Source: an uncultured archaeon | GTDB taxonomy: Archaea; Aenigmatarchaeota; Aenigmatarchaeia; CG10238-14; SCSR01 | Direction of reading: 5' to 3' | Assembly: GCA_964372485.1 (NCBI GenBank) | Contig: CAYJQI010000001.1 | Span: 128,001-192,000, forward strand | DNA length: 64,000 bases | Part shown: positions 5,370 to 64,000 of the stretch, in pieces | Numbering within the stretch: the stretch's first letter is position 1 | How the letters are laid out: each line of letters opens with the position of its first letter | Position numbers and translations under genes: made by a program | Notes under the pieces: model-generated | Told to the model about the DNA's origin: nothing | Seen by the model: the letters and a program-made list of their open reading frames with translations, nothing else | Database searches by the model: none

Positions 5370-5422
5370 ACTAATAGGAGGGCAGTAAACTATTTAAGCT
5401 TTTTGTCATTTATAAGTGGTAA

Positions 5423-10772: not shown

Positions 10773-10807
10773 TAATAGTAATTAAATTAGGAAAAATAAA
10801 TAACTGG

Positions 10808-10993
10808 TCAGCATGGACCCGGTATATTACCACCAGGTATAAGTGCACAAACAAAATTCTTCAACCCTTCCAATAATACTCCACTAAAGAACGATGTTAT
10901 CTTTTCGTGAAAGATCCAGATCAGAATTAAAGCCGTTAATGCAAATATGACCGACGTTACAATCCACAATACATCTCCTATAGCTTTTGCCAT
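10808..10993 (-). CDS. small pilin-like membrane protein
   Basis: 61 aa starting MAKAIGDVLWIVTSVIFALTALILIWIF. Its ATG shares one base with the stop codon of the upstream micro-ORF (TAATG). Confidence 0.45.
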   Translation of the reverse strand: MAKAIGDVLWIVTSVIFALTALILIWIFHEKITSFFSGVLLEGLKNFVCALIPGGNIPGPC

Positions 10994-11106
10994 TAGCTAC
11001 CTCCTGTTTTTTTCCATATATTGAATGCAGCAAGTAGAATTAATAATGTGAAAACTAGCATTATCAAAAACCAAAATATATACCCCGTCATGGCCCCCTT
11101 TTTCAT
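10993..11106 (-). CDS. micro-ORF, 37-aa pilin-like membrane peptide (below the ORF-track cutoff)
   Basis: My translation is MKKGAMTGYIFWFLIMLVFTLLILLAAFNIWKKTGGS*. It starts 17 nt after the platform gene, ends in a TAATG overlap with the next gene, and has the same M-K-K-G plus hydrophobic pattern as its neighbours. Confidence 0.35.
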   Translation of the reverse strand: MKKGAMTGYIFWFLIMLVFTLLILLAAFNIWKKTGGS

Positions 11107-11122
11107 ATTTATACATTGAATT

Positions 11123-13102: not shown

Positions 13103-13134
13103 TAATTAGATTTTGATTTGGAGGGAAATTAAGG

Positions 13135-13428
13135 TTACCTACATTCCGTAGGTGGATTTCCACCCGAGATTGTTTGACAAATAGGACATGCATTGGTTTT
13201 CGGATCAAAACCTGTTCCACATGATCTTCCACAAACTTCTTTCATTGTTGTTTCTTTAGACTCATCTGGAGATGTACACCATGCAAATATCCTTGCGTTA
13301 CATTCGCCTTCTTTAGTAACACAATTTCCTGTTCCCCCACTTGAGATAAGCCAATAACCGATTATAGCTACAACAATGACTCCTATTATTAATGCTATTA
13401 TGTAAGGTATGGCCACTCCTTTCTTCAT
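13135..13428 (-). CDS. small Cys-rich pilin-like protein (MKGVA.PY family)
   Basis: 97 aa starting MKKGVAIPYIIALIIGVIVVAIIGYWL. Nine Cys, including ECNARIFAWC. 4-nt overlap with the upstream paralogue. Confidence 0.6.
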   Translation of the reverse strand: MKKGVAIPYIIALIIGVIVVAIIGYWLISSGGTGNCVTKEGECNARIFAWCTSPDESKETTMKEVCGRSCGTGFDPKTNACPICQTISGGNPPTECR

Positions 13429-13787
13429 CTTTCACATCCGCCCCAAACACCATTCACACATTGTTGTATTCCAGATTCTGTAGGAGAAATTACACAATTA
13501 CGTGTTTGACCATTTGTACATTGTTGAGATCCTGATGGGGTAGTGTAAGAAGGTGTTTCGATGCATTTACCTGTAGAATCTTTTTCTGGTTTAAGCCCTG
13601 GGCATTTAGTTTCATCGAAATTTGATGTAAATCCATTACAATAATTGAAAGCCATTGTATCACATTCTGCTTTATTTCCTACAATAATTGTTTTTCCTCC
13701 TTGGAAAATTAACCAATATCCGATTAAACCAATTATAATTACACCAAGTACAAGCGCAATAACATATGGAATGGCCACGCCTTTCAT
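13425..13787 (-). CDS. small Cys-rich pilin-like protein (MKGVA.PY family)
   Basis: 120 aa starting MKGVAIPYVIALVLGVIIIGLIGYWL. Eight Cys, including ECDTMAFNYC. Confidence 0.6.
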   Translation of the reverse strand: MKGVAIPYVIALVLGVIIIGLIGYWLIFQGGKTIIVGNKAECDTMAFNYCNGFTSNFDETKCPGLKPEKDSTGKCIETPSYTTPSGSQQCTNGQTRNCVISPTESGIQQCVNGVWGGCER

Positions 13788-13806
13788 AGAAATAATTTGA
13801 TTTACT

Positions 13807-16044: not shown

Positions 16045-16091
16045 GAATTCACCTAATTAATTTATTTGCGTAGTTAAACAAATCTTTTATA

Positions 16092-16520
16092 ATGGACATC
16101 CCTAACCTTCCGCAATTGCCCTTTGAAAGACACGATGAGGAAGTTTCAAAAATAGTCACAGAGCTTGTTAAAAGAGTGAATGAGGATGTGAGGAGAATAA
16201 GAGTTGTGGAGCAGAGAATTGATAGGTTGGAAAGTTCTGTTGAATCAATTCAAGAAGATACATTGACTCAGTTGAATGATTTGAAAATTGGATTGGAAAA
16301 GATTAACAACAAAATAGTTTCTGTTTCTGAAAAGTTGATGAACATCGAGGGCGAGATTTTAAGATTAAGCAAAGAATTGTCAAAAACCGCAACTAGAAGG
16401 GAATTGAAACAGATAGAAACTTTTATTGATTTGATAAATCCTGTTACAGCGAAATTTGTTACGAAAGAAGAAGTAGAAAAAGCGATTGAAGATAAAGTTC
16501 ATAGATTCAAGAAATCATGA
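16092..16520 (+). CDS. coiled-coil protein, function unknown
   Basis: 142 aa with heptad-rich sequence (RIRVVEQRIDRLESSVESIQEDTLTQLNDLKIGLEKINNKI..). Divergent from the pilus ATPase gene across a 47-nt spacer. Confidence 0.5.
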   Translation: MDIPNLPQLPFERHDEEVSKIVTELVKRVNEDVRRIRVVEQRIDRLESSVESIQEDTLTQLNDLKIGLEKINNKIVSVSEKLMNIEGEILRLSKELSKTATRRELKQIETFIDLINPVTAKFVTKEEVEKAIEDKVHRFKKS

Positions 16521-16922
16521 TTTTGGTAGAATTTGTAATGTTGCTTCAAGTTGAGGATGATCACCTTGGCTTCCTTCAGCACATGTTTTACAATAGATTT
16601 TAAATGAACCGACTTTAGATGCAACAAACTCGATCACATCAGGATTTGATGGTGATGTACTGGTAATCAATGTGTTTATTCCAAATTCGTCAATGGAAAT
16701 ACCATGATCATGTGTAGGTTCTGTTGTAATTGCAAGGAATTTTATTAAATCCCCCTCAGTTGCTGTGAATTTATTAGGTTGGTAACCTCCATGAGTTATA
16801 GCAATATCAAATTCTGTTGTATTTCCGGCAAAAGTTGTCTTACCAGGCATTCCAAAGAAGAATCCAGCGAATAAAATAACCGCTACAAGAAGAATGAGTA
16901 AATATAACTTATTTAATTTCAT
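16515..16922 (-). CDS. membrane-anchored cupredoxin-like domain protein
   Basis: 135 aa with an N-terminal TM helix. 'GGYQPNKFTATEGDLIKFLA..THDHGISIDEFG..GSFKIYCKTC..H' resembles the cupredoxin_1 / EfeO-type pattern (His, Cys, His ligand candidates). Confidence 0.5.
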   Translation of the reverse strand: MKLNKLYLLILLVAVILFAGFFFGMPGKTTFAGNTTEFDIAITHGGYQPNKFTATEGDLIKFLAITTEPTHDHGISIDEFGINTLITSTSPSNPDVIEFVASKVGSFKIYCKTCAEGSQGDHPQLEATLQILPKS

Positions 16923-16974
16923 GAGAAAAGCTTAGATTTATGTTCTCTTAAAGGAAAATAACTATAGTGAATTA

Positions 16975-17649
16975 ATGGCATTACCTTTTTTGAGAGGCGG
17001 AAAGGGCAAAGGCGCTATTCCTGTGGAAAGAGTCAAAGATTTGACCGCAAGAGGGTTTTCTGAAGTCGAAATTATAGATGTTTTGAGAAAAGAGGGTTAT
17101 TCTCCAGAAGAAATTGACACCGGATTGACACAATCTTTAAAATTTGCGGCTGCAAACCCAGCAACTCCACCAAATTTAGGATTACCACCAGAGCAACCTA
17201 AGGAAAGGGGTATGTTACCGACTTTGGATGATATTTTACCACGAGAACAACCTCAAACTGTGACTCCACAATTACCAGAAACATCTTTACCGCAAGAATA
17301 TTATCAACAAGACCATCAACAAGCATATCCAACTGAAGATTATGTAGATTATATTGTTCAGGCAAGAATGGGAGACATAAATCAAAAGATTACCGAGTTC
17401 TCAGTCAAGGCTACTGAAATAGAAAAAAGAGTGCAGGAAATAAGTGATAGAATAAGTGAGATTATGAATTTGAGAAATGCTGAACAAACACAGATTTTGA
17501 GTAAGATAGAAACTTTCAAAGAAGGTGTGACTGATATAGAAACTAGAATTAGTGGTTTGGAGAGGGCATTTAAGGAAACATTGCCTGCATTAATAGAATC
17601 TGTGAGGGCATTGACTGATCTTGTGCAAAGATTCAAGAGAGAAGCTTAA
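16975..17649 (+). CDS. coiled-coil protein with a small N-terminal helical domain and a Pro/Gln-rich linker
   Basis: 224 aa. N-terminus VERVKDLTARGFSEVEIIDVLRKEGYSPEEID, a P/Q-rich low-complexity middle, then a C-terminal ~100-aa heptad region similar in style to 16092..16520. Confidence 0.5.
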   Translation: MALPFLRGGKGKGAIPVERVKDLTARGFSEVEIIDVLRKEGYSPEEIDTGLTQSLKFAAANPATPPNLGLPPEQPKERGMLPTLDDILPREQPQTVTPQLPETSLPQEYYQQDHQQAYPTEDYVDYIVQARMGDINQKITEFSVKATEIEKRVQEISDRISEIMNLRNAEQTQILSKIETFKEGVTDIETRISGLERAFKETLPALIESVRALTDLVQRFKREA

Positions 17650-17672
17650 CTTTTCAAAAATAAATTATAATA

Positions 17673-18176
17673 ATGGCATTTGCAATTGAAAATTTTGTTT
17701 CTCAAGAACTAACTCAAATTCTTGTAACTGCGGTAATTCCATTTTTGATAATTTTTGCTGTCCTTTTGTTTGCGTTGAGACAAACTAGAGTTCTTGGAAG
17801 CAATAATTTGATTTATATTATATTATCAGCAGGATTCACGATCATGATTTATGCTGTCCGTCCAGAAACTTTTGCATTTCTTGCATCTTATCTAGTACAA
17901 CTGAGTGTAGCCGGTGCTATTATAGCTCTATTGGGTGTTTTCATAGTCATAGTTTTTTCTTTATTGAGACGTGGACAGAATATTACAGATATGTTCAAAT
18001 CCGAAGCAGACAAATTGAAAGCATTGGAAAAAGAAGAGATCAAATTAAGGAATCGATATCAATCTCGTGGATTTATGTCACCAAATATTGCTGAACGAGA
18101 AGAGATCGCAGGTAAATTAGAAAAAATAGAGCATGAAAAAAAATTCCTACTGGCCAAACTGAGAAGACTTCACTAG
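17673..18176 (+). CDS. membrane protein, paralogue 1 of a 4-gene tandem family (has a C-terminal coiled coil)
   Basis: 167 aa. ..LTQILVTAVIPFLIIFAVLLFALRQTRVLGS.. carries the family signature. The C-terminus is KSEADKLKALEKEEIKLRNRY.. Confidence 0.55.
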   Translation: MAFAIENFVSQELTQILVTAVIPFLIIFAVLLFALRQTRVLGSNNLIYIILSAGFTIMIYAVRPETFAFLASYLVQLSVAGAIIALLGVFIVIVFSLLRRGQNITDMFKSEADKLKALEKEEIKLRNRYQSRGFMSPNIAEREEIAGKLEKIEHEKKFLLAKLRRLH

Positions 18177-18215
18177 CCTTTAAATTTTTACTAAACTAAA
18201 TTAACAAAAGATATA

Positions 18216-18755
18216 ATGGTAAATGTTTTTGAGATTGCGGTTGAAAGGCTTAACGAGTTAGGATTTTACAATTTTCTACTTCCGTTCATATTATTTACTG
18301 CAATCGTATTTGCAGTTCTGAGGAAAACCCACATCTTAGGAGATTCGGTTTCGATCAATGCTGTTGTAGCAGTTTCAGCTGGATTGTTAGTTTTAGGTGC
18401 ACCAGTTCTATTGGGTGGAGATTTAATCCATCCTTTAACAGCATTCATGACGCAGTCACTAGTTGTTATGTTGGTAATTATAGTTGGTTTTATGTTAGCT
18501 AGTTTCTTCTATCCAAATATAACGGAAAAATTAGGGGAAATATTCAAGGCTCCTGGACCAGCGAACTGGCTTATTTGGGGAACTGTTGCACTTGCTGCGG
18601 TATTTGGATTGTTCACATTCATCGGCAAACCTATCGGAACTGCGATAAGTGGCGCTAAAATACCAAGTGAATTAATAAGTATGGTTGTAATAGTATTCAT
18701 AGTTATGATAATTTTACTTGTAGTAACGATAGGTGCAGGGAAGGAGGCTAAGTAA
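18216..18755 (+). CDS. membrane protein, paralogue 2 of the tandem family
   Basis: 179 aa starting MVNVFEIAVERLNELGFYNFLLPFILFTAIVFAVLRKTHILGD, followed by about 4 more TM helices. Confidence 0.6.
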   Translation: MVNVFEIAVERLNELGFYNFLLPFILFTAIVFAVLRKTHILGDSVSINAVVAVSAGLLVLGAPVLLGGDLIHPLTAFMTQSLVVMLVIIVGFMLASFFYPNITEKLGEIFKAPGPANWLIWGTVALAAVFGLFTFIGKPIGTAISGAKIPSELISMVVIVFIVMIILLVVTIGAGKEAK

Positions 18756-19300
18756 TGGTGTCGTTTTTTGAAAATGCAATTTTGAAACTTCAGGAGTTGG
18801 GATTTTTCCAATTCTTCTTACCATTCCTTTTAACAGCTGCTATAGTTTATGGTGGATTGAGAAGAGCGCAGTTGTTTGGAGATCCTGATAAGAATATCGC
18901 TGTGAATGGAATTGTTGCTTTTGTTATTAGTTTGTTTGTATGGGCAGCACCAATAATTCTTGGAGTGGATATAGAATCAAGATTGTCGGCATTTTTCATC
19001 CAAGGGATTAGTGTATCGTTGATAGTTTTATTTGGACTAATAATATCGAGTATGTTTTTCCCACCAGATTTGGCAAAGAACTTGAGTGATAGAGTCAAGA
19101 CACCGATTTTCTGGGGAGGGATTGTTATTGTGGCATTGATTATTTTCATTGTTATTCTGATATCGAGTGGGTTAGCATCTGTTTTGTTTCCACGAGGGGT
19201 AGGAGTTAGTATATCATCGGCAACATGGGGAACAATTGCAGCCATGGCAGCTCTTGTTATAAGTTTATTTATAGTAGTAAGAGCCGGAGGAGGCAAATAA
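18755..19300 (+). CDS. membrane protein, paralogue 3 of the tandem family
   Basis: 181 aa starting MVSFFENAILKLQELGFFQFFLPFLLTAAIVYGGLRRAQLFGD. TAATG overlap with paralogue 2. Confidence 0.6.
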   Translation: MVSFFENAILKLQELGFFQFFLPFLLTAAIVYGGLRRAQLFGDPDKNIAVNGIVAFVISLFVWAAPIILGVDIESRLSAFFIQGISVSLIVLFGLIISSMFFPPDLAKNLSDRVKTPIFWGGIVIVALIIFIVILISSGLASVLFPRGVGVSISSATWGTIAAMAALVISLFIVVRAGGGK

Positions 19301-19333
19301 TGTTTAAATCTTTAGAAAAGAAAATAGGGTTAG

Positions 19334-19981
19334 TTGAAAATGAAAAGTGAAATTACTTCTAAGATTGGATTGAGTTTTATTCTCAGTATTTTGATGTTTT
19401 CTACGATAACGTTTGCTCAAGGATTTGCAAACATTGTTGAGACATTGAAGGAAGTTGGTGTTTTCGAGTTCTATCTTCCTTTCTTATTGGTTTTTGCAGT
19501 TTTGTACGCTTTGTTGTTGAAAGCGGGTATTTTCGGTACACAAAAGCAGCTAGTCACTATTATCGCATTAGCTGCATCTGCATTCATAATGGTTTATGTA
19601 CCTGTAGGAATAACATTTGGACAGTTCTTAACTAATTTTGTAGGAAATGCTGTAACTGCAATATTGACTGTTCTTTTGTTTTTGATATTTATTGGTATGC
19701 TTCAAAGTGGTAAAATATTACCTGAATCTATGGCAGATGTTTTCAAAGGTAGTGTTCTATGGATAGTGCTTATTTTTATTTTATTGATCGCGTTTGGTGT
19801 GTTCATTTCAAGTGGAGGAACTTCAATATTCCCCGGTCTTAAGATATTTCCAACTCAATCATTTGGAGGCGTTGGGGGACTTGAACCATCTACAATTGCT
19901 ATAATTGTTTTGATTATTGGAACGGCTATTATCATTTTCCTATTTGCTAAAGGGGACAAAGCCGCAGCAGCAAAAACTTAG
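19334..19981 (+). CDS. membrane protein, paralogue 4 of the tandem family (extra signal-peptide-like N-terminus)
   Basis: 215 aa. ..FANIVETLKEVGVFEFYLPFLLVFAVLYALLLKAGIFG.. is preceded by KIGLSFILSILMFSTITFAQG. The track start is TTG at 19334; the ATG at 19340 is an equally plausible start. Confidence 0.6.
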   Translation: MKMKSEITSKIGLSFILSILMFSTITFAQGFANIVETLKEVGVFEFYLPFLLVFAVLYALLLKAGIFGTQKQLVTIIALAASAFIMVYVPVGITFGQFLTNFVGNAVTAILTVLLFLIFIGMLQSGKILPESMADVFKGSVLWIVLIFILLIAFGVFISSGGTSIFPGLKIFPTQSFGGVGGLEPSTIAIIVLIIGTAIIIFLFAKGDKAAAAKT

Positions 19982-20045
19982 GAGAAATTAACTACTTTTC
20001 AGTGTCTACACATAACTTTAAATGACTAGTCGTTAACTAATAATT

Positions 20046-20675
20046 ATGAGTGAATCTTTGGCAGTTTTAGCTACGCAATTAGATGAGCCTAAAATCGTTG
20101 TAGAACCTGGGGTGGACGCTTCTAGGGTTAACGAAATAAAAAATAATATTGTTAAAGCTGAACATGGATTGGCTCATTTTATGAGCAGATATATACCAAA
20201 TGCTCGAAGTTTCCTAAACAAAGGAACGTATTACATCAAACGTCTCGGAAGAGGACTTGGAGGTATATTCAATCCTGAAGATGATAGTTTGCAGATAAAT
20301 CCTGATCAACCAAGTTCTAATTTTAGAGATGAATCTACTGTTCATGAAAAGATACATTTCTATCAGAAAGTTGGTGGTGCATTAGGAAGATATTGGGATG
20401 GTCTTATTTCGAACTTGGGTGATTTTGGTGCAATGTTATACAAGCCAATCATAGAAGGTGGAGCATCTTATTTGACACAACTTTATAGAGGACAGAAAAG
20501 TGAAGATGCATATTCTCCATATAGAGCAGGTGCAGAGGAAGTTGCGCATAAGCATGGTGCAGGTGTTTTAGTCAATCCGCCTAAAGATTCAAGAAAACTT
20601 ATGCAAATAGCAGGAACTTTTATTGACGGAATGTCAAAGTACATCAGGAAAAATCCTAGAGTAGCATATGCCTAA
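20046..20675 (+). CDS. hypothetical protein with an HExxH motif (possible zinc metallopeptidase-like)
   Basis: 209 aa. The only recognisable motif is 'STVHEKIHFYQ' (HEKIH). Confidence 0.45.
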   Translation: MSESLAVLATQLDEPKIVVEPGVDASRVNEIKNNIVKAEHGLAHFMSRYIPNARSFLNKGTYYIKRLGRGLGGIFNPEDDSLQINPDQPSSNFRDESTVHEKIHFYQKVGGALGRYWDGLISNLGDFGAMLYKPIIEGGASYLTQLYRGQKSEDAYSPYRAGAEEVAHKHGAGVLVNPPKDSRKLMQIAGTFIDGMSKYIRKNPRVAYA

Positions 20676-27847: not shown

Positions 27848-28378
27848 ATGAACATTGATTGGAAAACTTATTCTATAGTTGGAGGTTCTTTACTATTGAT
27901 AATAACTCTGTTCTTCCTGGAAAAAGTATTCTTCTTCTTTGTGATTACTATTGCCGCACTTTTACTTGCAGTTATACTAGGATTGTTCCCACCGTTAAAG
28001 TATGCGGGTTTAGAACTTGTAACTTCCTCTACGATACTAGTCGGGATAATTTATGGACCTGTTCTTGGTGGGATATACGGGTTTACGATGTTACTTGCGC
28101 ATCTAGTCATCGGACAATATTACATAGGACCTTATCTCACATGGGTTCTTCCTGAATTTATATTACTTGGAATATTTTCTGGTATTTTCAAGGGCTCTAT
28201 GATAGGTCCTGTGGGAGTGGCGTTTGTAATTGGTATAAATTTGATAAGCATGCTCTTTACGTTTCTTGTAGAAAAAGATAGAGTTGGAAAAGAACTTCCG
28301 TATGTTATAGGAAATGTTATGATAAACTCATTCTTGATAACTCAAGCATTCACTCCAATAATAAATTGGATCAACTAG
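27848..28378 (+). CDS. polytopic membrane protein, unknown function
   Basis: 176 aa with about 5 TM helices. The alternative-frame ORF 27859..28155 is rejected. Confidence 0.5.
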
Positions 28379-29321
28379 CATCAGTAAGCCCATTCTCTGT
28401 AACTTTGAAAACAGCTTCGCCTTCCTGAATGTTAGGTGCATCAATAACTTTACAAATTCTTGTTCCTTCTTTTCCTCTTCTGAGATAAAGACGATAAGTT
28501 GACATGTGTGCAAGAATATTTCCACCAACAGGGCGTGTTGGGTCACCAAATAACATAGCTGGATCTGACATGACTTGATTTGTGATATAGACTGCTATAT
28601 TGTATGCATCGGCGAGTCTCATTAATTGATGAAGATGACGATTAAGTTTTTGTTGTCTTCCTGCAAGTTCACCTCGTCCAACAAAATCAGATCTAAAGTG
28701 AGAAGTGAGTGAATCTATAATGATTAATTTGATTTTTTTCTCCTCAATCATTTCTGGAGCTTTCTCTACAAGTAAAATTTGATGTTCTGTATTGAATGCG
28801 CGAGCGACGAAAATATTTCTTAAAACTTTTTCTGGTTCTAATTTCAATCCTCGTGCTATCTGTACAATTCTTTCTGGTCGAAATGTATTTTCAGTATCAA
28901 TAAAGAGACAGGAACCATCCAAACCACCCTTCTCTTTTGGAAGTTGAACTGACACCGCAAGTTGAAATGCGAGTTGACTTTTTCCAGATCCAAATTGTCC
29001 ATAAGCTTCTGTTATTGCTTGAGTTTCAATTCCACCTTGTAGAAGAGTGTCGAGACTTTTACTTCCAGTTGTTATTTTTGCGACTGTAGTTCTCTTTTCT
29101 AAAAGTTTGTCAGCAGTCTCATAACCAATATCCAACTTTTCTCGTATAGTGCTAATTATTTTAGCCGCAGTTGCTTCTCCTATTTCAGCAATGTTTGCAA
29201 GTTCTGTTGGAGATGATACAGCAATAACCATCGGGTCGGAATAACCAATACTTTTCAACTTCTCGGCAGTCTTTTCACCAACTCCGGGAATATCTTCAAC
29301 GTTGATTTCTTTCTTAGCCAT
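28371..29321 (-). CDS. radA: DNA repair and recombination protein RadA
   Basis: 316 aa. N-terminal HhH ([13 protein letters not shown]), Walker [17 protein letters not shown], Walker [14 protein letters not shown]. Confidence 0.95.
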
Positions 29322-30334
29322 TATACACCAACCAGCGATTCCACTTCACTTAGTAATCTTTTACTCTCTTCCAAAGGATTTATACCTTTAGAATCATTAA
29401 CCATCATTTCTAATCTGTCAAAGAGATTATTTTTCTTTACTCTTCCTGACAAAACGAATTCTTTACCCGAGATTTTATCAGATATCATCTTGTATCGTGT
29501 TTCAGGATCATGATTAAACAATTCTTGCGCAGTAATTTCTGTAAATCTCTCAGCACTTTCACGGAATAATACACATCTCAAATCTCCTGTACCATCGTCA
29601 ATAACGAACGATACAACAAGTTGATGATTTGGAGTCACTTCACCATGATCAGGACATTTATTATTTTCTGTTTTATTATTGCACATTGAACAAACATCGA
29701 AAATAAAATTACCTTTGAAGATTTGAACTATAGTTCCTTTTATTTCAAAATTTCCACCTGATACTATATCGGATATAACAGTTCTTTCTGGTGAAACATT
29801 AAAACCAGTTTTTGATAATTGTTCCACAGAAGGTAATTCCACATAACCGTCTACAGTGTGAATAGAGCCGAATCTACCAACAGAAATTTCAACCTCTCCG
29901 AAAATATTTTCACGGGAAAATCCATTATTAACTTGAACTACATCACCAATTGAAAGAACATCTTCTTCAAGCAATTTTACCTGATCATCCCATAACGGAA
30001 TTCTTATTGATCCTGTGTTATCGCCTATGAAAATATTTGCAACCCGTCCAGCAGAACCATTTGATTTTGTAAACTCATTTATTTTGGATATACGGAAAAT
30101 CCTTCCTATGACACTTACATTTCTTAATCCAACTGCGATGCTCTTGATAGATGGTCCTGAACTAGTCTGTTCTGGTAGATCTATACCCATTTCTTTTGCA
30201 ACCAAATATAACGCACCTTCCTTTGTTATTAATTCACTCATTTCAGAATGTTTCTTGTCAACAAGATTTAGTATGTCGTTCTTTTTAAGGTTAGACTTGT
30301 TCTCAAACTCTGCAACAAGAAAATTAAAATCCAT
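29321..30334 (-). CDS. replication protein A-like ssDNA-binding protein (OB folds plus zinc ribbon)
   Basis: 337 aa. Repeated OB-like segments (..[16 protein letters not shown]..; ..[20 protein letters not shown]..) and [22 protein letters not shown]-type 1-nt overlap with the radA start. Confidence 0.65.
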
Positions 30335-30368
30335 GAAATTTGTATGTTATTTAATTCTAAAATAGATG

Positions 30369-30575
30369 TTATTTGTTTCTGGAAAGCCGAATGTCTTCGC
30401 CGATTATAGTTTTACGTCCTGCATGTTTGGCAAGTGCTGCAGCTTCTTTGGCAATATGCATCATTCTTTCTTCCATTATATTTGCAAATTCCTCCAATGC
30501 ATCTTGAGAAACTCGTTTAGCACCAACCTTTTTTAAAATTCTCTCGAAAGGAAGTTTCGGTAAAATATTTGCCAT
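30369..30575 (-). CDS. archaeal histone (HMf family)
   Basis: 68 aa. [58 protein letters not shown] aligns by eye to the HMfB histone fold. Confidence 0.9.
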
Positions 30576-30599
30576 AAGTAAGATTGAGATTGGTTAATA

Positions 30600-30851
30600 T
30601 TAAACTTTTTCAGTAGGTTCTTTTTCAAATTCTCTCATAATCCAAACTACGATTAGAGAAATTGTAGCTATAAAACTGACCAATGCACCAAAAATTGAAA
30701 ATATTGGACTAATTCCTCGTGTACTTATTATGTTGATGCCAATGCCAAGTGAAAGTATCATTGCACCTACAAAAATAACAAGTATTGAATAGTTTTCTGC
30801 AGTTTCTAACTTGTCTTTTCCTTTCAATTTTGATAAACTTAGAGACACCAT
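30600..30851 (-). CDS. small membrane protein (2 TM)
   Basis: 83 aa, starting 8 nt downstream of aglB on the same strand. Confidence 0.4.
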   Translation of the reverse strand: MVSLSLSKLKGKDKLETAENYSILVIFVGAMILSLGIGINIISTRGISPIFSIFGALVSFIATISLIVVWIMREFEKEPTEKV

Positions 30852-30858
30852 ATGATCA

Positions 30859-32991
30859 CTATATTTTTGCCTTGAATATCTTAACTTCTGGATTAGAATA
30901 CATTAAATCAAAATTACTTAAACCTTGTCCATCAAAGAAGAACATTCTTGTAAATATGGAATCTCGTATTTGCTGATCCATGAAAATAATTGTTCTAAAG
31001 CTTGGATCGATCCAAACCATTCCATCTATAGTTGCATTTGGAAATGTTGAATGCACTCTACCTGTTTCTGTATAAAATACAACATCACTCACCACCGCAT
31101 TACGAACTCCTTCAGATGGAACATTTACAACAGCTATCAAATCAGTTCCATTTTGTAATAATGTAGTTGTGAAACCGCCTTGTGTATAGATTGGTAAACC
31201 TTGTGCATCAAAGTTTGAAAATGGCACTTGAACATAATTTCTTCCATCACACTGCCATTTATCCCCGTGAGTAGTATTCCACAATTGCATATCAAAGTTA
31301 CCGAAACAACTCATCCAATAGTACTTTCCAATCAAATCACTAGTTGCTAGGACATAAACTTCTGAGACATCTTTACATGCATCATCGGGAACTTGAACAT
31401 TTGGGAAAGATTTCTTTGCAGTTTCACATTGTTCTTCGGTCAAGTGAGTATATTTTTTCAATAGATCTAATGACTCGTCCTCATTGCTAGTTGAAAATAT
31501 TTTACCCATATCTCTGATTCTAACATTATGATTGTACGGCGTACATCCCCCACAGTGAGCACCATCTGCATGAGCTTTCAATCCCGTATATCCGGTAATT
31601 ATGTGTCCTGGATCCCACCAAGTTGATATCAAAGAATCTTTATCAGCATTAACCTTCAACCAATCGAGTCCATCATACCAATTCTGACTTATTGCCAAAC
31701 CACTTCCTGATTTTCCTATTTGTATGGCGCCAGATATCAAAACAAAAGTGAATATAGATATTAACGCAAATACCGATGCAAACAACAAAATATTTTTGCC
31801 TTTAAGATAGTTATACAAATTGCCAATAACATAACCTGTGGAAACAGCATTGGATATCATGAAGAATAGAGAGAACCTTATACCTGTCGAAATTAAATAA
31901 AATGAAACTAGCCACCATATTGACAAAAATATTTCAACAAAACTGATTTTTTCCTTTTTGAAAAATTTATACGCCATTAATATTGGTAATCCGAAAAGTG
32001 ATAATGCCATTGGAAGAATTTGTAATGAACTAGATCCAACGGGTAAAAGAAAACCAACCCTTTCAGCAATAGTATGAAGCCCTGAAACAGAAAAAACATT
32101 TATTGTCTGCAATTCTGCAACTGAAATGTTAACAATCAGACGTTCACCGGCAATACCAGTAAATCCTAAACCGCCTATCAGTGCATGGAACATTGTGTTA
32201 AAATTCAGTAAATATCCTATGATGTTTGTAACTACAAAAATGATCACCAAAGGAATGAGAATCGCTTTAGTATCTGGAATTAAATTTTTGAAATGCAATC
32301 TAAACTTTTTCTGATGCCACATTTCCTCCAAAAGTCTGAAAATAACAAATGCGGGAATGAAAACTAGAAACAACAACAGTACAAACCAACCGCCTTCCCA
32401 ATTATAGACAAACAAAAGAGTACTAACTATCGCAAAAAGATAGTAAGGTATATTTTTGAGTTTCAGTGCAGAGTTTTTGAGTGCTAAAAATATGGCAAAC
32501 ACCGACAGGAACATGTAAAACACGGTAGGTGCATCTGTATCCAAATAACCAGCCATTGAAACACCAATGAAAATAGGAGCTGTTACTGCAAACAATCCTG
32601 TTAACAATCCACCAATATTATTTGATAGTAGTCGACCCAATAGAAATGCAGGTATTGGTATTAAGGCAACCAACAACAGTGGAGCAAGCTTACCTACGTC
32701 CATCATTTCAATACTACTTGAAAAACCATTCAGAATTTTGTACAAATATGCTATTGTATACGGCCACCCAACTGAAATTTGAACAGGTCTTCCCGGTGGG
32801 TAATATGTTAAACTATCCCATTCGGGTGTTTTGTAATCGTTTTGAACTATGTCTTCTGCATATCTGTAAAAATACCACGGATCATAGTCAAGAACTGTTG
32901 GCAAACTGAGTGTGCTACTTCGAATAAACACTCCCAAGAAAATTATAGCTCCCAAAGCAGCCGATAAGAGCAGGATATTCTTGATATTCAT
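30859..32991 (-). CDS. aglB: dolichyl-phosphooligosaccharide-protein glycotransferase (archaeal oligosaccharyltransferase, STT3 family)
   Basis: 710 aa with about 13 N-terminal TM helices. The catalytic-loop motif STWWDPGH is a WWDYG variant, followed by a soluble C-terminal domain. Confidence 0.85.
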   Translation of the reverse strand: MNIKNILLLSAALGAIIFLGVFIRSSTLSLPTVLDYDPWYFYRYAEDIVQNDYKTPEWDSLTYYPPGRPVQISVGWPYTIAYLYKILNGFSSSIEMMDVGKLAPLLLVALIPIPAFLLGRLLSNNIGGLLTGLFAVTAPIFIGVSMAGYLDTDAPTVFYMFLSVFAIFLALKNSALKLKNIPYYLFAIVSTLLFVYNWEGGWFVLLLFLVFIPAFVIFRLLEEMWHQKKFRLHFKNLIPDTKAILIPLVIIFVVTNIIGYLLNFNTMFHALIGGLGFTGIAGERLIVNISVAELQTINVFSVSGLHTIAERVGFLLPVGSSSLQILPMALSLFGLPILMAYKFFKKEKISFVEIFLSIWWLVSFYLISTGIRFSLFFMISNAVSTGYVIGNLYNYLKGKNILLFASVFALISIFTFVLISGAIQIGKSGSGLAISQNWYDGLDWLKVNADKDSLISTWWDPGHIITGYTGLKAHADGAHCGGCTPYNHNVRIRDMGKIFSTSNEDESLDLLKKYTHLTEEQCETAKKSFPNVQVPDDACKDVSEVYVLATSDLIGKYYWMSCFGNFDMQLWNTTHGDKWQCDGRNYVQVPFSNFDAQGLPIYTQGGFTTTLLQNGTDLIAVVNVPSEGVRNAVVSDVVFYTETGRVHSTFPNATIDGMVWIDPSFRTIIFMDQQIRDSIFTRMFFFDGQGLSNFDLMYSNPEVKIFKAKI

Positions 32992-58957: not shown

Positions 58958-59097
58958 ATACTAAATTTTATTCTTTTACCATAGTCTTTGATTATTTTTT
59001 TGACAGCTTGCTTCTTATTTCGCAATTTATAAAAAATTTTTACAAGATTAACTATTCTACTTTCCTCATCGTCCAAGTCAAATTGCATTTTTGACAT
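58954..59097 (-). CDS. small ORF, 47 aa, ribbon-helix-helix-like (below the ORF-track cutoff)
   Basis: My translation is MSKMQFDLDDEESRIVNLVKIFYKLRNKKQAVKKIIKDYGKRIKFSI*. It looks like a short beta strand followed by two basic helices, like CopG/antitoxin-type small archaeal proteins. Divergent from the LamG/Rhs gene pair. Confidence 0.35.
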   Translation of the reverse strand: MSKMQFDLDDEESRIVNLVKIFYKLRNKKQAVKKIIKDYGKRIKFSI

Positions 59098-59120
59098 AAT
59101 AATAAATAGCATTTTATATT

Positions 59121-59171
59121 AAAAAGATATCTTTAAATATAAATAATATCTAAAAGATACTTAAAGATATA
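59121..59171 (+). promoter_or_regulatory. candidate promoter/operator upstream of the LamG-Rhs gene pair
   Basis: Three copies of AAAGATA(T/C) at 59123-30, 59153-60 and 59163-70. The first lies in the perfect palindrome AAAGATATCTTT. TATA-like TTTAAATATAAATA lies between copies. Confidence 0.25.
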
Positions 59172-61154
59172 ATGAAAGCTGTCGTAAAAGTAAGCCTTAT
59201 TGCTCTAGCGGTTGCTTTTTTAGTGATTTCTTTAGGATTTATCATACCATTTCTTTCAGAATCGACTATAGCAGATGGAATGCAGGCTGGAACTGAGAAT
59301 TTTAAAATAACATATAATGTCATAACAGAAGACGTGACAGGTACTGGGATAGTTTATACGCCTCAATGTTTCGAATGTCATCTACCAATTAATTTTTCTT
59401 ACTCTGGTTCCACTGCTCCAGACTCTGTGAATATTCCTCTTTCAAAGTTCACTCATACCTGGAATAAAATTAATCAAAGCGATGACATCAGCTTAACTGG
59501 GATAAGTATTTTGGTGAACAAAACATTTGTGAGTGAGTTCAATAACATAACAACCATATGTGAAAATCAGACTGCTGTCAATGAAACTAATTATAGCGAA
59601 TGTGTATATGAAAACAATCCATATCAAGTTCAGGGATGGAGATGGGAATGGGAATCTTTATCATCCGATTTGACTTTTGAGAAAAATAAATGGTATGTAA
59701 TCGATTATATTGCAGAAAGAACTCCGAGACTTGGTGGTTATGCGTCGGATCTTATACCCAGCATAAACTCCGTAGAGCTTAGTAATTTAGCATGGTTTAA
59801 TTCAAGTTACCATCAAAGAACAAATTTCACAGTTTTTGTACCTTCTAGTACTATAGCATATATTTCAGCAAATACGACAGTAGTGATCCCTATAAACTGG
59901 GATACTGCTACGGAAATTTCGGAAGGTCAGCTTAATAGTAATGGTTCGGATTTAACTATTGTAAATCAAAACAATACTCAGCTCAGTTGGACATGGTGTG
60001 AATATGGAAATCCAACATATGGAATAAATAAAGCGAATACTTGCATATTTGTTAAGGATGTGTTAAGAACAGACAACACAACTGTGATATCTTTCTACCA
60101 TGATAACCCAAACGACAATGTATTTGCTAATTCATCATTTAACAATACATTTTCGCTAAGAAACACCGTAAATCTAGTATCATTGATATATGGTGGGACA
60201 AATGGTACCCACATACCAGACAGAGAAGAAGATACCAGATGGGGTGGTGGAATATTCTCGAAAAGTGCGGGAAGCAATGTTAATAATGCGACTGGACTAA
60301 AGGTAACTGGTATTAATGTCACTGCCGGAACTACTACATATTTCATATCAAACGAAAGTGCAACATTCCCAAATAGTCCAATTAGTTTATATTACTGGTA
60401 TAGAACTCCGGCGAATGCCATAACAGCTTCGGCATATATTCTCACCACCACGGGGGAATCCTTCGGTGTGAGAACCAATGTAGCTGGCCAACCTATATAC
60501 TATTCATCCTCTTCTGCAACATCCTTGGGAAGCCAAACTACAAGTCAATGGTACTTTGGTGCTGTTCGCGATGATTCAGCAAATGGAATACGACTATCAG
60601 GGTTCGCAGATAATAGTTTTATCGGTTCGACAACGACGTCTGGAACAAATGGACATGGTGGACAGGTAATATTATTCGCTAAATCCGGTGGAACATTTGA
60701 TTTTTCAGGAATATTACAAATTTTAGCTATCTACAATGGTACTTTAACTGATAATGAAGTGAATGCGACATGGGCAGTGTGGAGCAATAATTCGCTTGTG
60801 GTAAAACAAGGTGAAGAAAATGTGGGGGTTTCCATAGGCGCGAATGAAACGGTCGGAAGGTCCGCAATTGAACAAGGTATAGGAAATTCTTCTATATCAG
60901 GAACTACAATCTACACAGATCAGCAAATTTATGTAAGATATGTAAATACAACCCAACAATTGGCGAGGTTTGACAAAGTAACCAAGTTCGGAAATCAAAT
61001 CTGGGCGTTCAACTATTTTTACAACACTAGTTCTTCTTTCACAAATATGCAGAATATAACACCATCGCTTTACATTCTGGAAATTGCAAATATGAGCGAA
61101 GCCTCTCTAAGAACTAGAATATCAACATTTATCAATCAGACAAATGTTTCATGA
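59172..61154 (+). CDS. secreted/anchored LamG (concanavalin A-like) domain protein, extremely rich in N-glycosylation sequons
   Basis: 660 aa. N-terminal hydrophobic helix VSLIALAVAFLVISLGFIIPF. ..SQWYFGAVRDD..IRLSGFADNSFIG..ILQILAIYNGTLTDNEVNATW is the LamG_3-type pattern. About 30 N-x-S/T sites counted by eye. Confidence 0.65.
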   Translation: MKAVVKVSLIALAVAFLVISLGFIIPFLSESTIADGMQAGTENFKITYNVITEDVTGTGIVYTPQCFECHLPINFSYSGSTAPDSVNIPLSKFTHTWNKINQSDDISLTGISILVNKTFVSEFNNITTICENQTAVNETNYSECVYENNPYQVQGWRWEWESLSSDLTFEKNKWYVIDYIAERTPRLGGYASDLIPSINSVELSNLAWFNSSYHQRTNFTVFVPSSTIAYISANTTVVIPINWDTATEISEGQLNSNGSDLTIVNQNNTQLSWTWCEYGNPTYGINKANTCIFVKDVLRTDNTTVISFYHDNPNDNVFANSSFNNTFSLRNTVNLVSLIYGGTNGTHIPDREEDTRWGGGIFSKSAGSNVNNATGLKVTGINVTAGTTTYFISNESATFPNSPISLYYWYRTPANAITASAYILTTTGESFGVRTNVAGQPIYYSSSSATSLGSQTTSQWYFGAVRDDSANGIRLSGFADNSFIGSTTTSGTNGHGGQVILFAKSGGTFDFSGILQILAIYNGTLTDNEVNATWAVWSNNSLVVKQGEENVGVSIGANETVGRSAIEQGIGNSSISGTTIYTDQQIYVRYVNTTQQLARFDKVTKFGNQIWAFNYFYNTSSSFTNMQNITPSLYILEIANMSEASLRTRISTFINQTNVS

Positions 61155-61161
61155 TGGTGAC

Positions 61162-64000
61162 ATGCATTTGAAACAGTTTAAAAATTATCAGAAGAAAACT
61201 CTGTTATTTGTATTTATTGTAACGTTGATTGGATTTGGATCAATTGTTGTCGCAGATGATAATTACAAACCATATATTCACAAAGCCAATGTACCAGACC
61301 ATCCAAAGATAAAATTATACGGAAGTTATCAAACAAATTTATTTCCCGGAGCTGCAACATATTCATATCCTATAGAAGTGCCTCAGGGAACAAATGGTCT
61401 ACAACCTTCAATATCAATATCATACAATAGTCAAACCGCAAAACAGAGACCTGGGATACTGGGTGCTGGATGGTCATTGACACAAAACTACATATACAGA
61501 GATGTTAATTCGACTCCAAGTAATACAACCGATGATGAATTCAAATTAATTCTGAATGGAGGTTTCTATGATCTGGTATATGACTCTTCAGATAGTTTAC
61601 ATCATACTAAAATAGAATCATTCTTTAGAATACAGAATTTAACTGGCGCACCTAATACATACGGAACGTATTGGGTCGTTACTACAAAAGAGGGAACACA
61701 ATTTAGATTTGGTTATAATACAGATTCAGAATTAGCATCAAATACAGGAAGAAATTACGCTTTGAGATGGAGTCTGGATCAAGTTCAGGATACGCATGAT
61801 AATAAGATATTCTATTCGTACTCAGAAAATCCCAATACAATGGACAATGGCACATCATATATTTCTCAAATTCTTTACAATAATGACCAGAAAAGAAAAG
61901 TTAGTTTTGTATACGAAACCTCTGTCAGACCTGATGTAAGGACTATATATGATCAAGGAAATTTGCTGAATGAAACTAGAAGACTCTCGGAAATTAGGAT
62001 TCTTGTGAATGACAGTTTGGTTAGAAAATATCAGTTTGAGTATTCAAACCTGACAGGAGAAAGATCTGTATCAGCATTATCGAAAATAAAGTTTATTGGT
62101 GCAGACAACTCCTCTATATTGCATCAGATTTTATTTGATTATCATGCAAGCACATCACAATACACGAATGCATCGAATTTATATGAACCACCTCCATCTC
62201 CTTACCTGTTTGACGCAATAGGTGCAATCGACGAAGGTGTAAGGCTTGTAGATTTCAATAACGACGGTTTTGTTGATATTGTAAAGGGAGACGCGTCATC
62301 ACCAGCCACGAAAAAATCATGGTTCAATAATAGAACTGGATGGAACGAAACTACTTCCTGGATATTGCCTGAATATATTGTGGATAGCAGTAACACGGAT
62401 AATGGAATAAGGTTTGTTGACTTTGATGGTGATGGTTTCTTAGACATACTTCGAGGTAACAATGGACTTAGGAATGCATGGAGGAATAACGGTACTGGAT
62501 GGGTGAACGCATCATCCGTATGGAATCCTCCAATTGATTTTTACACCGGTGGTGAGCTTGGGGTTGTGTTGATAGATTTCAACGGTGATGGTAGAACTGA
62601 TATCCTGAAAGCAAGTAACACACATGGCAACCAATCTTACATGAACAACGGAAACGGGTGGACAAATACAACTTCTCAATGGCAGTCGCCAGATTATTTT
62701 CTATTTGCAACCAATGATGCAGGCAGCAGAATTGAGGATGTCAATGCAGATGGTCTGCCTGATATTATCAGAGGATATGATAGGGAAGTTAATGTTAGAA
62801 AGACATGGCTGAATAACGGAAGTGGATGGACTCTGCATGATGTATGGAGTCCTCCTGTGGTGTTCACTTCGAATGCAAAAACTGATACAGGTGTAAGATT
62901 TTGGGATGTTAATGGAGACGGGCTTCCTGATCTTATTGAAGATTATGCAGATGCAACAGAAACTGTAACACATGCTTATATAAATAATGGCAACGGATGG
63001 ACTCAGAATGATTCCTGGGTATCTCCTGAACATTTCACTGTTAACGGCAGGAATTATGGCAGAAGGCTTGCTGATGCAAATGGTGATGGATTTGCAGATA
63101 TAATCATATCTTATACTGAAAGTGGTGTGACACAAAGGTACACTCAAGTGAAGAACTTTTCCACACCTTTCATGCTCAAGAGTATCACAAACGAACTGGG
63201 AGGTGTGACAACAATCTCCTATGGAAATTCCACATCATTCAACAATACAGGAAATGACTCGCTATCTGACATCGGCTTCAATGTCTTTGTGGTGAAGAAT
63301 ATCACATACAACAACTCATTGTCCGGTGCATTTAATTCACTCTTCAATTATTCCTACAATTATTCCGGGGGCAGGTATGACTACAATGATACCGACTTTA
63401 GGGGATTTGCTGTTGTAAATGAAACATTGCCGGATAGCTCTCTTATCATTCACCGGTTCCATCAGGATGACGCTCTTAAGGGCAGGGAATATCTTACAGA
63501 AGTTTACAATTCTTCCGGAAGTATTTTCTCCGAGGATGAAACCCTATTCAATTTCACAAATACAACTGTGAATGTTACGGGGAATTACTTTAAAGTTTTC
63601 ACTGCCGCGCAGATCAGCTACAGCCATGATGGAAGTTCGACAAATCCGAGAATAACCAATGTCACGTATGCTTACGATAGCTTTGGCAATGTCATCAGCA
63701 GAAGACTTCTTGGTGATGTGAATGCAAGCGGGGATGAAAAGTATGAGAATTACTCCTATGTGATTAACACGACGAACTGGATTGTTGACAAATTGAGTTT
63801 GTACAGATTATTCTCAGACAACTCCACGAAAGTTAAGGAGATTAAATATTCCTATGACGGGCAAGTATTCAATAAGAATGCAACGAAAGGCGATGTTACT
63901 GCTGTTGAACAGTGGAACAGCAACGGCACTCATCCGATTGCGAGATTTGAGTATGATGGGTTTGGAAATGTAATCAAGGAGATAGATCCTCTCGGAAGGC
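61162..64000 (+). CDS. Tc-toxin TcB/TcC-like / Rhs-family protein, 5' partial (SpvB N-domain, FG-GAP/VCBS propeller, TcdB-mid, YD repeats)
   Basis: Not in the ORF track because it has no stop in the window. My translation from ATG 61162 stays open for 946 codons: MHLKQFKNYQKKTLLFVFIVTLIGFGSIVVA.., ..YSYPIEVPQGTNGLQPSISISYNSQ..GAGWSL.., six D-x-N-x-DG-x-x-D loops, PFMLKSITNELGGVTTISY, DFRGFAVV, YAYDSFGNVISR, FEYDGFGNVIKEIDPLGR. Confidence 0.85.
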   Translation, partial: MHLKQFKNYQKKTLLFVFIVTLIGFGSIVVADDNYKPYIHKANVPDHPKIKLYGSYQTNLFPGAATYSYPIEVPQGTNGLQPSISISYNSQTAKQRPGILGAGWSLTQNYIYRDVNSTPSNTTDDEFKLILNGGFYDLVYDSSDSLHHTKIESFFRIQNLTGAPNTYGTYWVVTTKEGTQFRFGYNTDSELASNTGRNYALRWSLDQVQDTHDNKIFYSYSENPNTMDNGTSYISQILYNNDQKRKVSFVYETSVRPDVRTIYDQGNLLNETRRLSEIRILVNDSLVRKYQFEYSNLTGERSVSALSKIKFIGADNSSILHQILFDYHASTSQYTNASNLYEPPPSPYLFDAIGAIDEGVRLVDFNNDGFVDIVKGDASSPATKKSWFNNRTGWNETTSWILPEYIVDSSNTDNGIRFVDFDGDGFLDILRGNNGLRNAWRNNGTGWVNASSVWNPPIDFYTGGELGVVLIDFNGDGRTDILKASNTHGNQSYMNNGNGWTNTTSQWQSPDYFLFATNDAGSRIEDVNADGLPDIIRGYDREVNVRKTWLNNGSGWTLHDVWSPPVVFTSNAKTDTGVRFWDVNGDGLPDLIEDYADATETVTHAYINNGNGWTQNDSWVSPEHFTVNGRNYGRRLADANGDGFADIIISYTESGVTQRYTQVKNFSTPFMLKSITNELGGVTTISYGNSTSFNNTGNDSLSDIGFNVFVVKNITYNNSLSGAFNSLFNYSYNYSGGRYDYNDTDFRGFAVVNETLPDSSLIIHRFHQDDALKGREYLTEVYNSSGSIFSEDETLFNFTNTTVNVTGNYFKVFTAAQISYSHDGSSTNPRITNVTYAYDSFGNVISRRLLGDVNASGDEKYENYSYVINTTNWIVDKLSLYRLFSDNSTKVKEIKYSYDGQVFNKNATKGDVTAVEQWNSNGTHPIARFEYDGFGNVIKEIDPLGR

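Follow-up and report, generated by a model that had tools for sequence, protein, structure and literature searches.

A probable polymorphic-toxin cassette with a TcB-like shell, a variable tail and a conserved partner gene in DPANN archaea

We analysed a stretch of 64,000 nucleotides from an uncultured archaeon of the Aenigmatarchaeota (assembly GCA_964372485.1, contig CAYJQI010000001.1, positions 128,001 to 192,000 of the forward strand), hereafter the window, whose 3' end appears to cut through the lead gene of a cassette for a polymorphic toxin in a DPANN archaeon. This gene encodes P0001, a protein of 1645 residues that a homology search retrieved, from a contig of 791,048 bp, at 100% identity over the window part, and that we regard, with a probability of roughly 80%, as an autoproteolytic, cocoon-type polymorphic toxin with a cognate immunity protein. 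Directly upstream lies a second gene, here called the partner. An earlier reading of this DNA, made without database searches (the sequence-only reading), had proposed at this position a shell of the toxin complex (Tc) or Rhs type.

That reading described a frame of 946 codons from ATG 61162 on the forward strand that the list of open reading frames (ORFs) had missed. Both statements were borne out: the frame runs without a stop up to the window end at 64000, and it was skipped solely because the lister drops ORFs that run off the end. The ORF itself stands, although its start has to be moved, as the database gene model begins at ATG 61144 (MFHDGDM...), six codons further 5', which we consider the more likely start. 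All peptides quoted from the frame are present in P0001 (residues 67–112, 205–226, 675–693, 751–760, 842–853 and 935–952), and the proposed signal or anchor helix corresponds to a hydrophobic N-terminal segment, judged by eye. The family consensus keeps an Ala immediately ahead of a conserved D.Y.PY motif, which fits a signal-peptidase site.

Profile searches recovered all the claimed families, namely SpvB, FG-GAP/VCBS, TcdB_toxin_midN and RHS repeats, above their curated cut-offs. In Pfam, SpvB (PF03534) scored 47–50 bits in the window part and in full-length P0001 (cut-off 22), FG-GAP_3 scored 78–85 bits over five stretches, TcdB_toxin_midN (PF12256) scored 84–93 bits (cut-off 24.8), and RHS_repeat scored 29.6 bits in the window part (cut-off 22). 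The six calcium-loop-like repeats noted by eye were found as D-x-N/D-x-D-G loops at P0001 residues 369–380, 425–436, 477–488, 531–542, 587–598 and 643–654, spaced 52–56 residues apart and followed in five of six cases by [WY]xNNxxGW, a regularity far beyond chance. The strands of the predicted structure fall into six groups in the same region, making the blades of a propeller visible.

We next modelled P0001 residues 40–1239 with AlphaFold2 from a family alignment of 55 sequences, which gave a confident, nearly all-beta structure (predicted local distance difference test, pLDDT, 91.7; predicted template-modelling score, pTM, 0.89). The 13 best PDB matches found with Foldseek were all TcB structures (TcdB2-TccC3, TcdB1 and YenB; E values from 6e-55 to 3e-47), with query-normalised template-modelling (TM) scores of 0.70–0.80, whereas the Rhs effectors of type VI secretion systems (T6SS) and the teneurins stayed at 0.34 or less (query-normalised: T6SS Rhs 0.30 or less, teneurin and teneurin-like protein (TLP) structures 0.25 or less, SGS1 0.34). 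The SpvB N-terminal domain structure 6p0x matched the model with a target-normalised TM of 0.60. This gap in scores indicates that the first 1200 residues are predicted to fold specifically as a TcB, beyond a generic Rhs shell, in agreement with the earlier assignment to a TcB (or fused TcB-TcC)/Rhs shell.

Past position 64000 the sequence-only reading had expected further YD repeats as well as an Rhs core and a toxin tip, and P0001 contains all of them. In the full protein, PF05593 scores 79.4 bits over four stretches (cut-off 22) and TIGR01643 scores 73.7 bits over five (cut-off 15.8), the YD repeats extending to approximately residue 1340; the Rhs-associated core (TIGR03696, NCBIfam) follows at residues 1367–1444 with 57.1 bits (cut-off 32.5). 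An Arg and two Asp residues reportedly form the autoprotease of YenC2 and TccC3. Aligning the core with TcdB2-TccC3 and bacterial teneurin-like structures using HMMER showed that these positions are retained in P0001 as R1401, D1414 and D1441, which we take to be their counterparts and which supply the autoprotease motif that was to be looked for. From this alignment we infer that the chain would be cut after approximately C1445, in DPTG/C, releasing a tail of 200 residues.

Across the family, conserved shells carry hypervariable tails. In a set of 15 full-length members, homology extends to every one of the 105 shell pairs (median identity 51%), but similarity between tails could be detected in only 7 of 105 pairs. 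Conservation ends at the family motif NNPY.Y.D..G, and the tails measure 168–233 residues. About half of the family members, P0001 among them, have a cargo that starts with a segment either hydrophobic or rich in Gly, and we speculate that this segment aids membrane entry. The terminal domain of P0001 (approximately 95 residues) is rare: a two-sequence profile run against 1.84 billion representatives retrieved only 18 relatives, each in a C-terminal position. Several belong to short orphan proteins, where they immediately follow an Rhs core, and one ends a 2150-residue SpvB-FG-GAP-TcdB-RHS protein. Conserved positions in this domain comprise a W, an S, YH...HG.G and EE.

An AlphaFold2 model of the tail domain (pLDDT 67.9, moderate) has the topology (beta)-alpha-alpha-beta4, which resembles that of the BECR RNases CdiA-CT, RelE and colicins E5 and D; in sequence, no resemblance of the tail to a toxin family of Pfam or NCBIfam could be detected. 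The PDB structure that the model matches best is CdiA-CT (8ey4; probability 1.00, TM 0.56/0.60, root-mean-square deviation 2.8 Å, E = 0.013), with RelE, colicin E5, colicin D and a second CdiA-CT ranking lower (TM 0.37–0.43 for RelE and the colicins). The model suggests, with moderate confidence, a BECR/RelE-like RNase fold, and we would give even odds that the tail acts as an RNase.

A toxin of this kind should be accompanied by a protective gene, and the relatives' loci provide candidates. We compared six such loci (L080–L085, approximately 20 kb each; L082 is the closed genome CP010425.1), whose flanks carry archaeal markers (RadA with an intein, RPA, archaeal histone and AglB). The recurrent order is the toxin gene, then directly a small unannotated ORF, then orphan modules. 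In four loci (L081, L086, L087 and L088) the small ORF co-varies with the tail domain: behind the subtype A tails of L081 and L086, which share 48% identity, come ORFs that are 42.5% identical (E = 8e-34), and behind the subtype B tails of L087 and L088 come ORFs that match each other at E ~1e-15. The downstream ORFs at L087 1108–1476, L088 12464–12793 and L081 14887–15312 share the motif L..YD(G/S)(F/V)(I/V)AG. Such co-variation is the pattern expected of a toxin–immunity pair. The P0001 tail is closest to subtype B (35–38% identity).

Orphan tips occur in L082, L084 and L086. In the archaeon GW2011_AR15 (AR15), two orphan genes of 415 and 446 residues match P0001 residues 1246–1461, the shell end and Rhs core, their C-termini differ, and small ORFs come after each. 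Duplicates of shell segments occur in L080 and L081, where genes of 273–295 residues are copies, 85–87% identical, of a segment of the locus's own main gene.

The closest known fold is that of the TcB-TcC 'BC cocoon' of Photorhabdus TcdB2-TccC3 (4o9x, 6h6e) and Yersinia entomophaga YenB-YenC2 (4igl). Common to the cocoon and P0001 are the SpvB-like N-terminal domain, the six-bladed FG-GAP propeller, the TcdB mid-N region, the RHS shell and an Rhs core with the Arg/Asp/Asp positions, followed by a variable C-terminal cargo. P0001 differs in being a single chain about two thirds as long as TcB plus TcC (approximately 2150–2450 residues together), in its N-terminal export signal, its cargo of only 200 residues, its sequon-rich shell (see below) and its archaeal host, and also in that midC was undetected and no TcA was found nearby; the immunity genes and orphan tips of its family, seen in relatives' loci, are a further difference.

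In the Photorhabdus and Yersinia toxins, the propeller binds TcA. P0001 could thus be the BC part of a classical three-part Tc (ABC) toxin, with a TcA encoded elsewhere that docks on the propeller and injects eukaryotes such as protists or invertebrates, as the specifically TcB-like fold, propeller included, and the alignment of the autoprotease positions with TccC3 would allow. Nevertheless, the sequence-only reading had seen no TcA-like gene upstream, and a Pfam scan of a set of large window ORFs likewise found no TcA-type domain, the largest listed ORF of the window being 864 residues; nor is there a TcA-sized gene in the six relatives' loci, and DPANN genomes measure about 1 Mb against some 7.5 kb for a TcA gene. 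More than 97% of TcC proteins have 851–1050 residues and a hypervariable region of 201–400 residues (Song et al. 2021, PMC7861908); the TcC-equivalent part of P0001 falls below the former range and its tail just below the latter. Cognate immunity genes and orphan tips mark conflict between prokaryotes and not anti-eukaryote Tc toxins, which makes a classical Tc holotoxin highly improbable here. The earlier suggestion of a contact-dependent weapon or host-interaction effector is supported as far as a polymorphic toxin is concerned, and qualified in that the evidence points to prokaryote-versus-prokaryote use and not to a classical ABC toxin.

The shell and the tail of P0001 also differ in their N-glycosylation sequons (N-X-S/T). 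P0001 carries 49, compared to 22.7 +/- 4.1 expected from shell shuffles, and its tail has none. In the 15 members, the shells hold 615 sequons in 21,307 residues (2.89 per 100) and the tails one in 3,040 (0.03 per 100), a split that fits an exposed, N-glycosylated shell with a cargo kept unmodified. Enrichment over own shuffles is 1.78-fold in the archaeal clade (median z = 4.6), whereas the distant, mostly bacterial relatives show a ratio of 1.00 and no enrichment; the partner is enriched as well (30 sequons against 14.5 expected, z = 4.8), and the window's cytoplasmic proteins are not. From these counts, the AglB pathway of the surrounding glycosylation island probably attaches N-glycans to the outside of the shell, and the clade-wide enrichment argues for a long residence in archaea. 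Two other window ORFs without Pfam matches show depletion relative to shuffles, the opposite of the toxin and partner: 5423–7114 on the reverse strand (1 sequon against 7.1, z = -2.7) and 9060–10772, also reverse (0 against 3.6, z = -2.1).

Heavy sequon enrichment, a propeller, a lectin-like partner and a location in a cell-surface glycosylation island would also suit a surface adhesin, teneurin-like, that mainly serves attachment of a symbiont to its host, with the YD shell as a scaffold and the C-terminal 'toxin' as a relic. For such a protein, however, one would hardly expect the autoprotease Arg/Asp/Asp to be retained, tails to turn over fast on conserved shells and to co-vary with a small downstream ORF in four loci, orphan-tip arrays to be maintained, or tails to be nearly free of sequons, as for cargo working in the cytoplasm; teneurin-type structures also match poorly (TM 0.34 or less). 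We regard a purely adhesive role as quite improbable, and note that adhesion and toxin delivery are not mutually exclusive.

The host is archaeal. The window encodes S3Ae, an archaeal/eukaryotic S15 (S13e N-domain), RadA/Rad51 (326 bits), RPA, TYW2/Trm5, a RIO kinase and STT3/AglB, markers that together assign it to archaea. Towards its end the composition shifts: in the last 4 kb the GC content rises to 0.38–0.40 and the tetranucleotide correlation falls to r = 0.86, compared to approximately 0.96 elsewhere in the window. Together with the existence of genuine bacterial relatives, such as one on a Nitrospirae contig at 35% identity, this shift could mean that the 59–64 kb segment is bacterial DNA, joined by an assembly chimera or acquired very recently, and thus uninformative on archaeal biology. 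Against this, the toxin segment's GC at third codon positions (0.34) and synonymous codon usage (r = 0.82) fall within the window's ranges (0.13–0.37 and 0.80–0.95), indicating that the Gly/Asp/Asn/Tyr-rich repeats cause part of the shift, and the partner–toxin unit recurs in independent assemblies, on no fewer than six further archaeal contigs that include a closed DPANN genome and others 0.4–0.9 Mb long. The sequon enrichment, clade-wide and absent from the distant, mostly bacterial relatives, speaks in the same direction. An assembly artefact at 59–64 kb is consequently very unlikely, the check for a chimeric join having shown none, and we find the bacterial-DNA explanation as a whole barely credible.

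The distribution of the family agrees with this assessment. A homology search returned approximately 70 relatives at 33–66% identity, and 17 of the 18 named close ones belong to Woesearchaeota, Nanoarchaeota, Pacearchaeota or the archaeon GW2011_AR15, whereas clearly bacterial matches fall to approximately 25% identity. In a rough neighbour-joining (NJ) tree without support values, all DPANN-named sequences group together, and the distant relatives that are clearly bacterial branch outside this clade. The earlier statement that the family is overwhelmingly bacterial has to be qualified, since the architecture is not exotic in archaea: Euryarchaeota had already been listed (PMC3482391), and the DPANN clade has about 70 members.

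One bacterial copy, on a Nitrospirae contig (L001, positions 9806–18385; 35% identity, split over three ORFs totalling ~2800 residues), is nested within the DPANN clade in the same rough tree. Mis-binning was considered for this contig and rejected, because an RND pump with outer-membrane factor and an HrcA-GrpE-DnaK-DnaJ operon identify it as truly bacterial, and the copy hints at a transfer from archaea to a bacterium. Separately, P0010, from an 8-kb contig labelled Ignavibacteria, is 55% identical to P0001, and the NJ tree places it well inside the Woesearchaeota sequences; the contig is probably archaeal and was mis-binned, a very recent transfer being the alternative.

In the window the partner gene precedes the toxin gene, with which it is probably co-transcribed; the end of the one overlaps or adjoins the beginning of the other (an 11-nt overlap from ATG 61144). 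A putative TATA-like promoter, TTTAAATA at 59132–59139, lies approximately 33 nt ahead of the partner ATG, a match of low specificity in this AT-rich genome. The partner has a hydrophobic N-terminal signal or anchor, and its window copy has no Pfam or NCBIfam match. In seven of seven loci (the window and L080–L085), a conserved C-terminal domain of the partner adjoins the toxin array (tblastn E = 1e-7 to 1e-35), the partner lying upstream of the array in four loci and downstream in three. The partner proteins (590–700 residues, exported) have variable middles, DUF2341 in L080, Laminin_G_3 in L082 and L083 and none detectable in the window, whereas the last ~100 residues are conserved around the motif AIEQGI..IYTDQQVYVR..FDKV..GN..WAFNY..NITP..Y.LE..N.S....FIN.T. 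No match to this domain was found in Pfam or PDB, a word-index search with its profile returned at least 3 proteins, and a likeness to the TcB-binding domain of TcA, which we considered, is unsupported so far.

In relatives, the cassette consists of a small ORF, the partner, the toxin, a small immunity ORF and orphan tips, and it is movable. Glycosylation gene clusters surround four of the seven loci (window, L080, L081 and L085), and the window and L080 share a backbone at 61–85% identity, RadA-RPA-histone-small membrane protein-AglB-glycosyltransferase-epimerase-NTP transferase (window 28371–32991, L080 181–16911). L080 carries a cassette of approximately 10.7 kb between its histone gene and its small membrane-protein gene; in the window, the histone gene (30369–30575) and the gene for an 83-residue membrane protein (30600–30851), both on the reverse strand, are 24 bp apart, and the cassette sits 28 kb away from this pair, after DegT. 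The small ORF at the left edge of the window cassette is the counterpart of a 50-residue ORF flanking the L080 partner gene, and travels with the cassette, the site of which differs between the two loci. Within the same backbone, the RadA gene of L080 (181–2541, 786 residues) contains an intein with LAGLIDADG, and that of the window (28371–29321, 316 residues), 85% identical, does not.

The order of the components is not fixed, as L083 demonstrates: positions 5271–8041 of that locus encode an 836-residue YD-shell protein and a 74-residue DUF7660 ORF upstream of the main toxin, with the Laminin_G_3 partner downstream. A second type of RHS-containing gene, encoding 724–758 residues, lies downstream of the main toxin in L080 (11480–14531), L081 (15312–18327) and L085 (13385–15661); it is 42–49% identical between loci and has no Rhs core recognisable by Pfam. 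In AR15 the main toxin contains it as its C-terminal half (36% identity). In L080 and L081 this gene overlaps the preceding shell-duplicate ORF of 273–295 residues by exactly 11 nt. A programmed frameshift was considered there and rejected, since GGAGG stands 6–7 nt ahead of the second ATG, indicating coupled but separate genes.

Several observations weigh against the interpretation of P0001 as a self-cleaving polymorphic toxin with its own immunity gene. The compositional shift of the toxin gene fits a foreign origin, and the TcdB_toxin_midC profile, one of those proposed for checking, has no match in P0001 even at E values up to 1; as the protein is shorter than TcB plus TcC, this segment may have been lost or have diverged too far for detection. 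No translocator that could serve delivery was identified, and the partner's probable role in attachment or delivery is read from gene linkage. Furthermore, the 200-residue tail belongs to no Pfam or NCBIfam family, its model is of moderate confidence with a best Foldseek E of only 0.013, and the immunity protein of the P0001 genome is a prediction, placed in the small ORF expected directly downstream, past the window.

With these points weighed, the cocoon-toxin reading also agrees with systems described by others. A 'TcdB/TcaC' class of polymorphic toxins, including Euryarchaeota in its range, was defined by comparative genomics (Zhang, de Souza, Anantharaman, Iyer, Aravind 2012, PMC3482391, Table 1) and has the same architecture as P0001: a signal peptide, SpvB, an integrin-like propeller, RHS and a variable C-terminal toxin. 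Toxins of the class come with an immunity gene, as is predicted for P0001. P0001 contains every element of this architecture, the signal peptide as judged by eye; no delivery mechanism was described for the class. NCBI names the DPANN homologues 'toxin TcdB middle/N-terminal domain-containing protein' or 'VCBS repeat-containing protein', and a 2021 paper (PMC8416519) notes that archaeal polymorphic toxin systems are predicted, without experimental characterisation.

Bacterial TLPs were shown experimentally to be Sec-exported YD shells around a polymorphic toxin of approximately 15 kDa, with a downstream immunity gene (Raoelijaona et al. 2026, PMC13018210; structures 9ifo, 9pt5); that study covers TLPs from bacteria only and does not mention archaea. 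As proposed for the P0001 family, TLPs are surface-exposed, exported YD shells around a small polymorphic toxin with an adjoining immunity gene, and the best PDB sequence match of the P0001 Rhs core is a TLP (E = 7.6e-10). They differ in having the teneurin 'superfold' in place of a TcB-type front with SpvB and FG-GAP (TM ~0.2). The T6SS Rhs effectors RhsA (7q97), Tse5 (8cp6) and RhsP (8h8a), the best full-length PDB sequence matches of P0001, over the core, share with the family the RHS shell, the core autoproteolysis motif, polymorphic toxins, immunity genes and orphan tips; they have PAAR/VgrG-linked N-termini and depend on a T6SS, whereas P0001 has an export signal and a propeller-bearing N-terminus of TcB type. 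Our literature search, which did not cover the archaeal survey of Makarova et al. 2019, returned no paper joining DPANN with 'RHS repeat', and no description of the DPANN clade, the partner gene, the sequon split or the toxin–immunity family.

Taken together, these data suggest a mechanism in which P0001 would be exported by Sec through its N-terminal signal or anchor and would fold into a compact, single-chain equivalent of TcB-TcC, with the SpvB-like domain, propeller, TcdB mid region and RHS/YD shell closed by an Rhs-core plug. The aspartyl autoprotease of the core (R1401, D1414, D1441) would cut after about residue 1445, the 200-residue cargo staying inside the shell; this cargo would comprise a hydrophobic segment, a Pro-rich linker and the ~95-residue RelE/colicin/CdiA-CT-like (BECR) domain, probably an RNase. 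The shell would be glycosylated by the island's AglB pathway, the cargo avoiding glycosylation sites, while the product of the small downstream ORF would protect the producer and its kin as an immunity protein and orphan tips could provide replacement toxins via recombination. The cocoon would then be displayed or released with the partner's help, and the small nuclease would enter neighbouring prokaryotes.

Overall, the evidence points to a weapon for conflict between microbes, although any particular delivery route has to be called doubtful. One such route, which we propose tentatively and hold to be rather unlikely, is a minimal, TcA-free delivery in DPANN archaea, in which the partner would hold or aim the glycosylated cocoon, its C-terminal domain docking on the propeller in a TcA-like manner, and the hydrophobic segment would carry the RNase into a host or rival archaeon.

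Table 1. Positions of the cassette features in the window, with residue ranges for P0001.
Feature	Position	Strand	Basis
Small ORF, ~46 residues, left edge of the cassette	58960..59097	-	50% identical (E = 3e-11) to the 50-residue ORF of L080
AT-rich intergenic region 5' of the partner, putative archaeal promoter	59098..59171	+	read from sequence
Partner gene, 660-residue exported or anchored, sequon-rich surface protein	59172..61154	+	hydrophobic N-terminus; sequons; homologues
Conserved C-terminal domain of the partner, ~100 residues	60840..61142	+	tblastn, 7/7 loci
Toxin gene, 5' 58% (residues 1-952 of 1645)	61144..64000	+	open frame; P0001 100% identical; Pfam/NCBIfam; AlphaFold2 model
N-terminal signal peptide or membrane anchor, P0001 K17-A37, KKTLLFVFIVTLIGFGSIVVA	61192..61254	+	by eye from sequence
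SpvB/TcaC-type N-terminal domain, P0001 69-232	61348..61839	+	Pfam SpvB; structural match to 6p0x
Six-bladed FG-GAP/VCBS beta-propeller, P0001 ~355-665	62206..63138	+	six loops; FG-GAP_3; model strands
TcdB_toxin_midN region, P0001 640-766	63061..63441	+	Pfam PF12256
First RHS/YD repeats of the shell, P0001 ~767-952	63442..64000	+	RHS_repeat and TIGR01643

Rfam and tRNA scans of the window found nothing. At 13807–20675, a PilB/T2SSE-type ATPase gene (13807–16044, reverse strand) adjoins six tandem ORFs of approximately 170–220 residues without family matches (16975–20675, forward strand), which may be the pilin and adhesin set mentioned in the sequence-only reading. The first of these ORFs has a sub-threshold match to the LXG domain (22.8 bits, cut-off 26.5), which is probably spurious.

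The architecture of SpvB, propeller and RHS, and its occurrence in archaea, were already known, and our finding extends known biology rather than overturning it. What the DPANN clade adds is a conserved new partner, a difference in glycosylation sites that sets the shell apart from the cargo, a BC architecture compacted into a single chain, and a toxin–immunity family that is new. We know of no Tc or Rhs system with an accessory protein like this partner. For the study of competition between DPANN symbionts and their rivals, or of their action on hosts, the locus offers a well-defined, testable system, with a TcB-like cage modelled at high confidence, a toxin domain that is both small and new, a matching immunity family and a conserved accessory protein, together with a sequence signature, a site-rich shell against a site-free cargo, that separates the exposed from the encapsulated part. 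A Tc-type cage without a nearby TcA gene bears on the evolution of such cages and on their application in protein delivery. If the TcA-free, partner-aimed delivery were true, it would be the first Tc-like toxin delivery mechanism between archaeal cells, and a tool of symbionts against their hosts.

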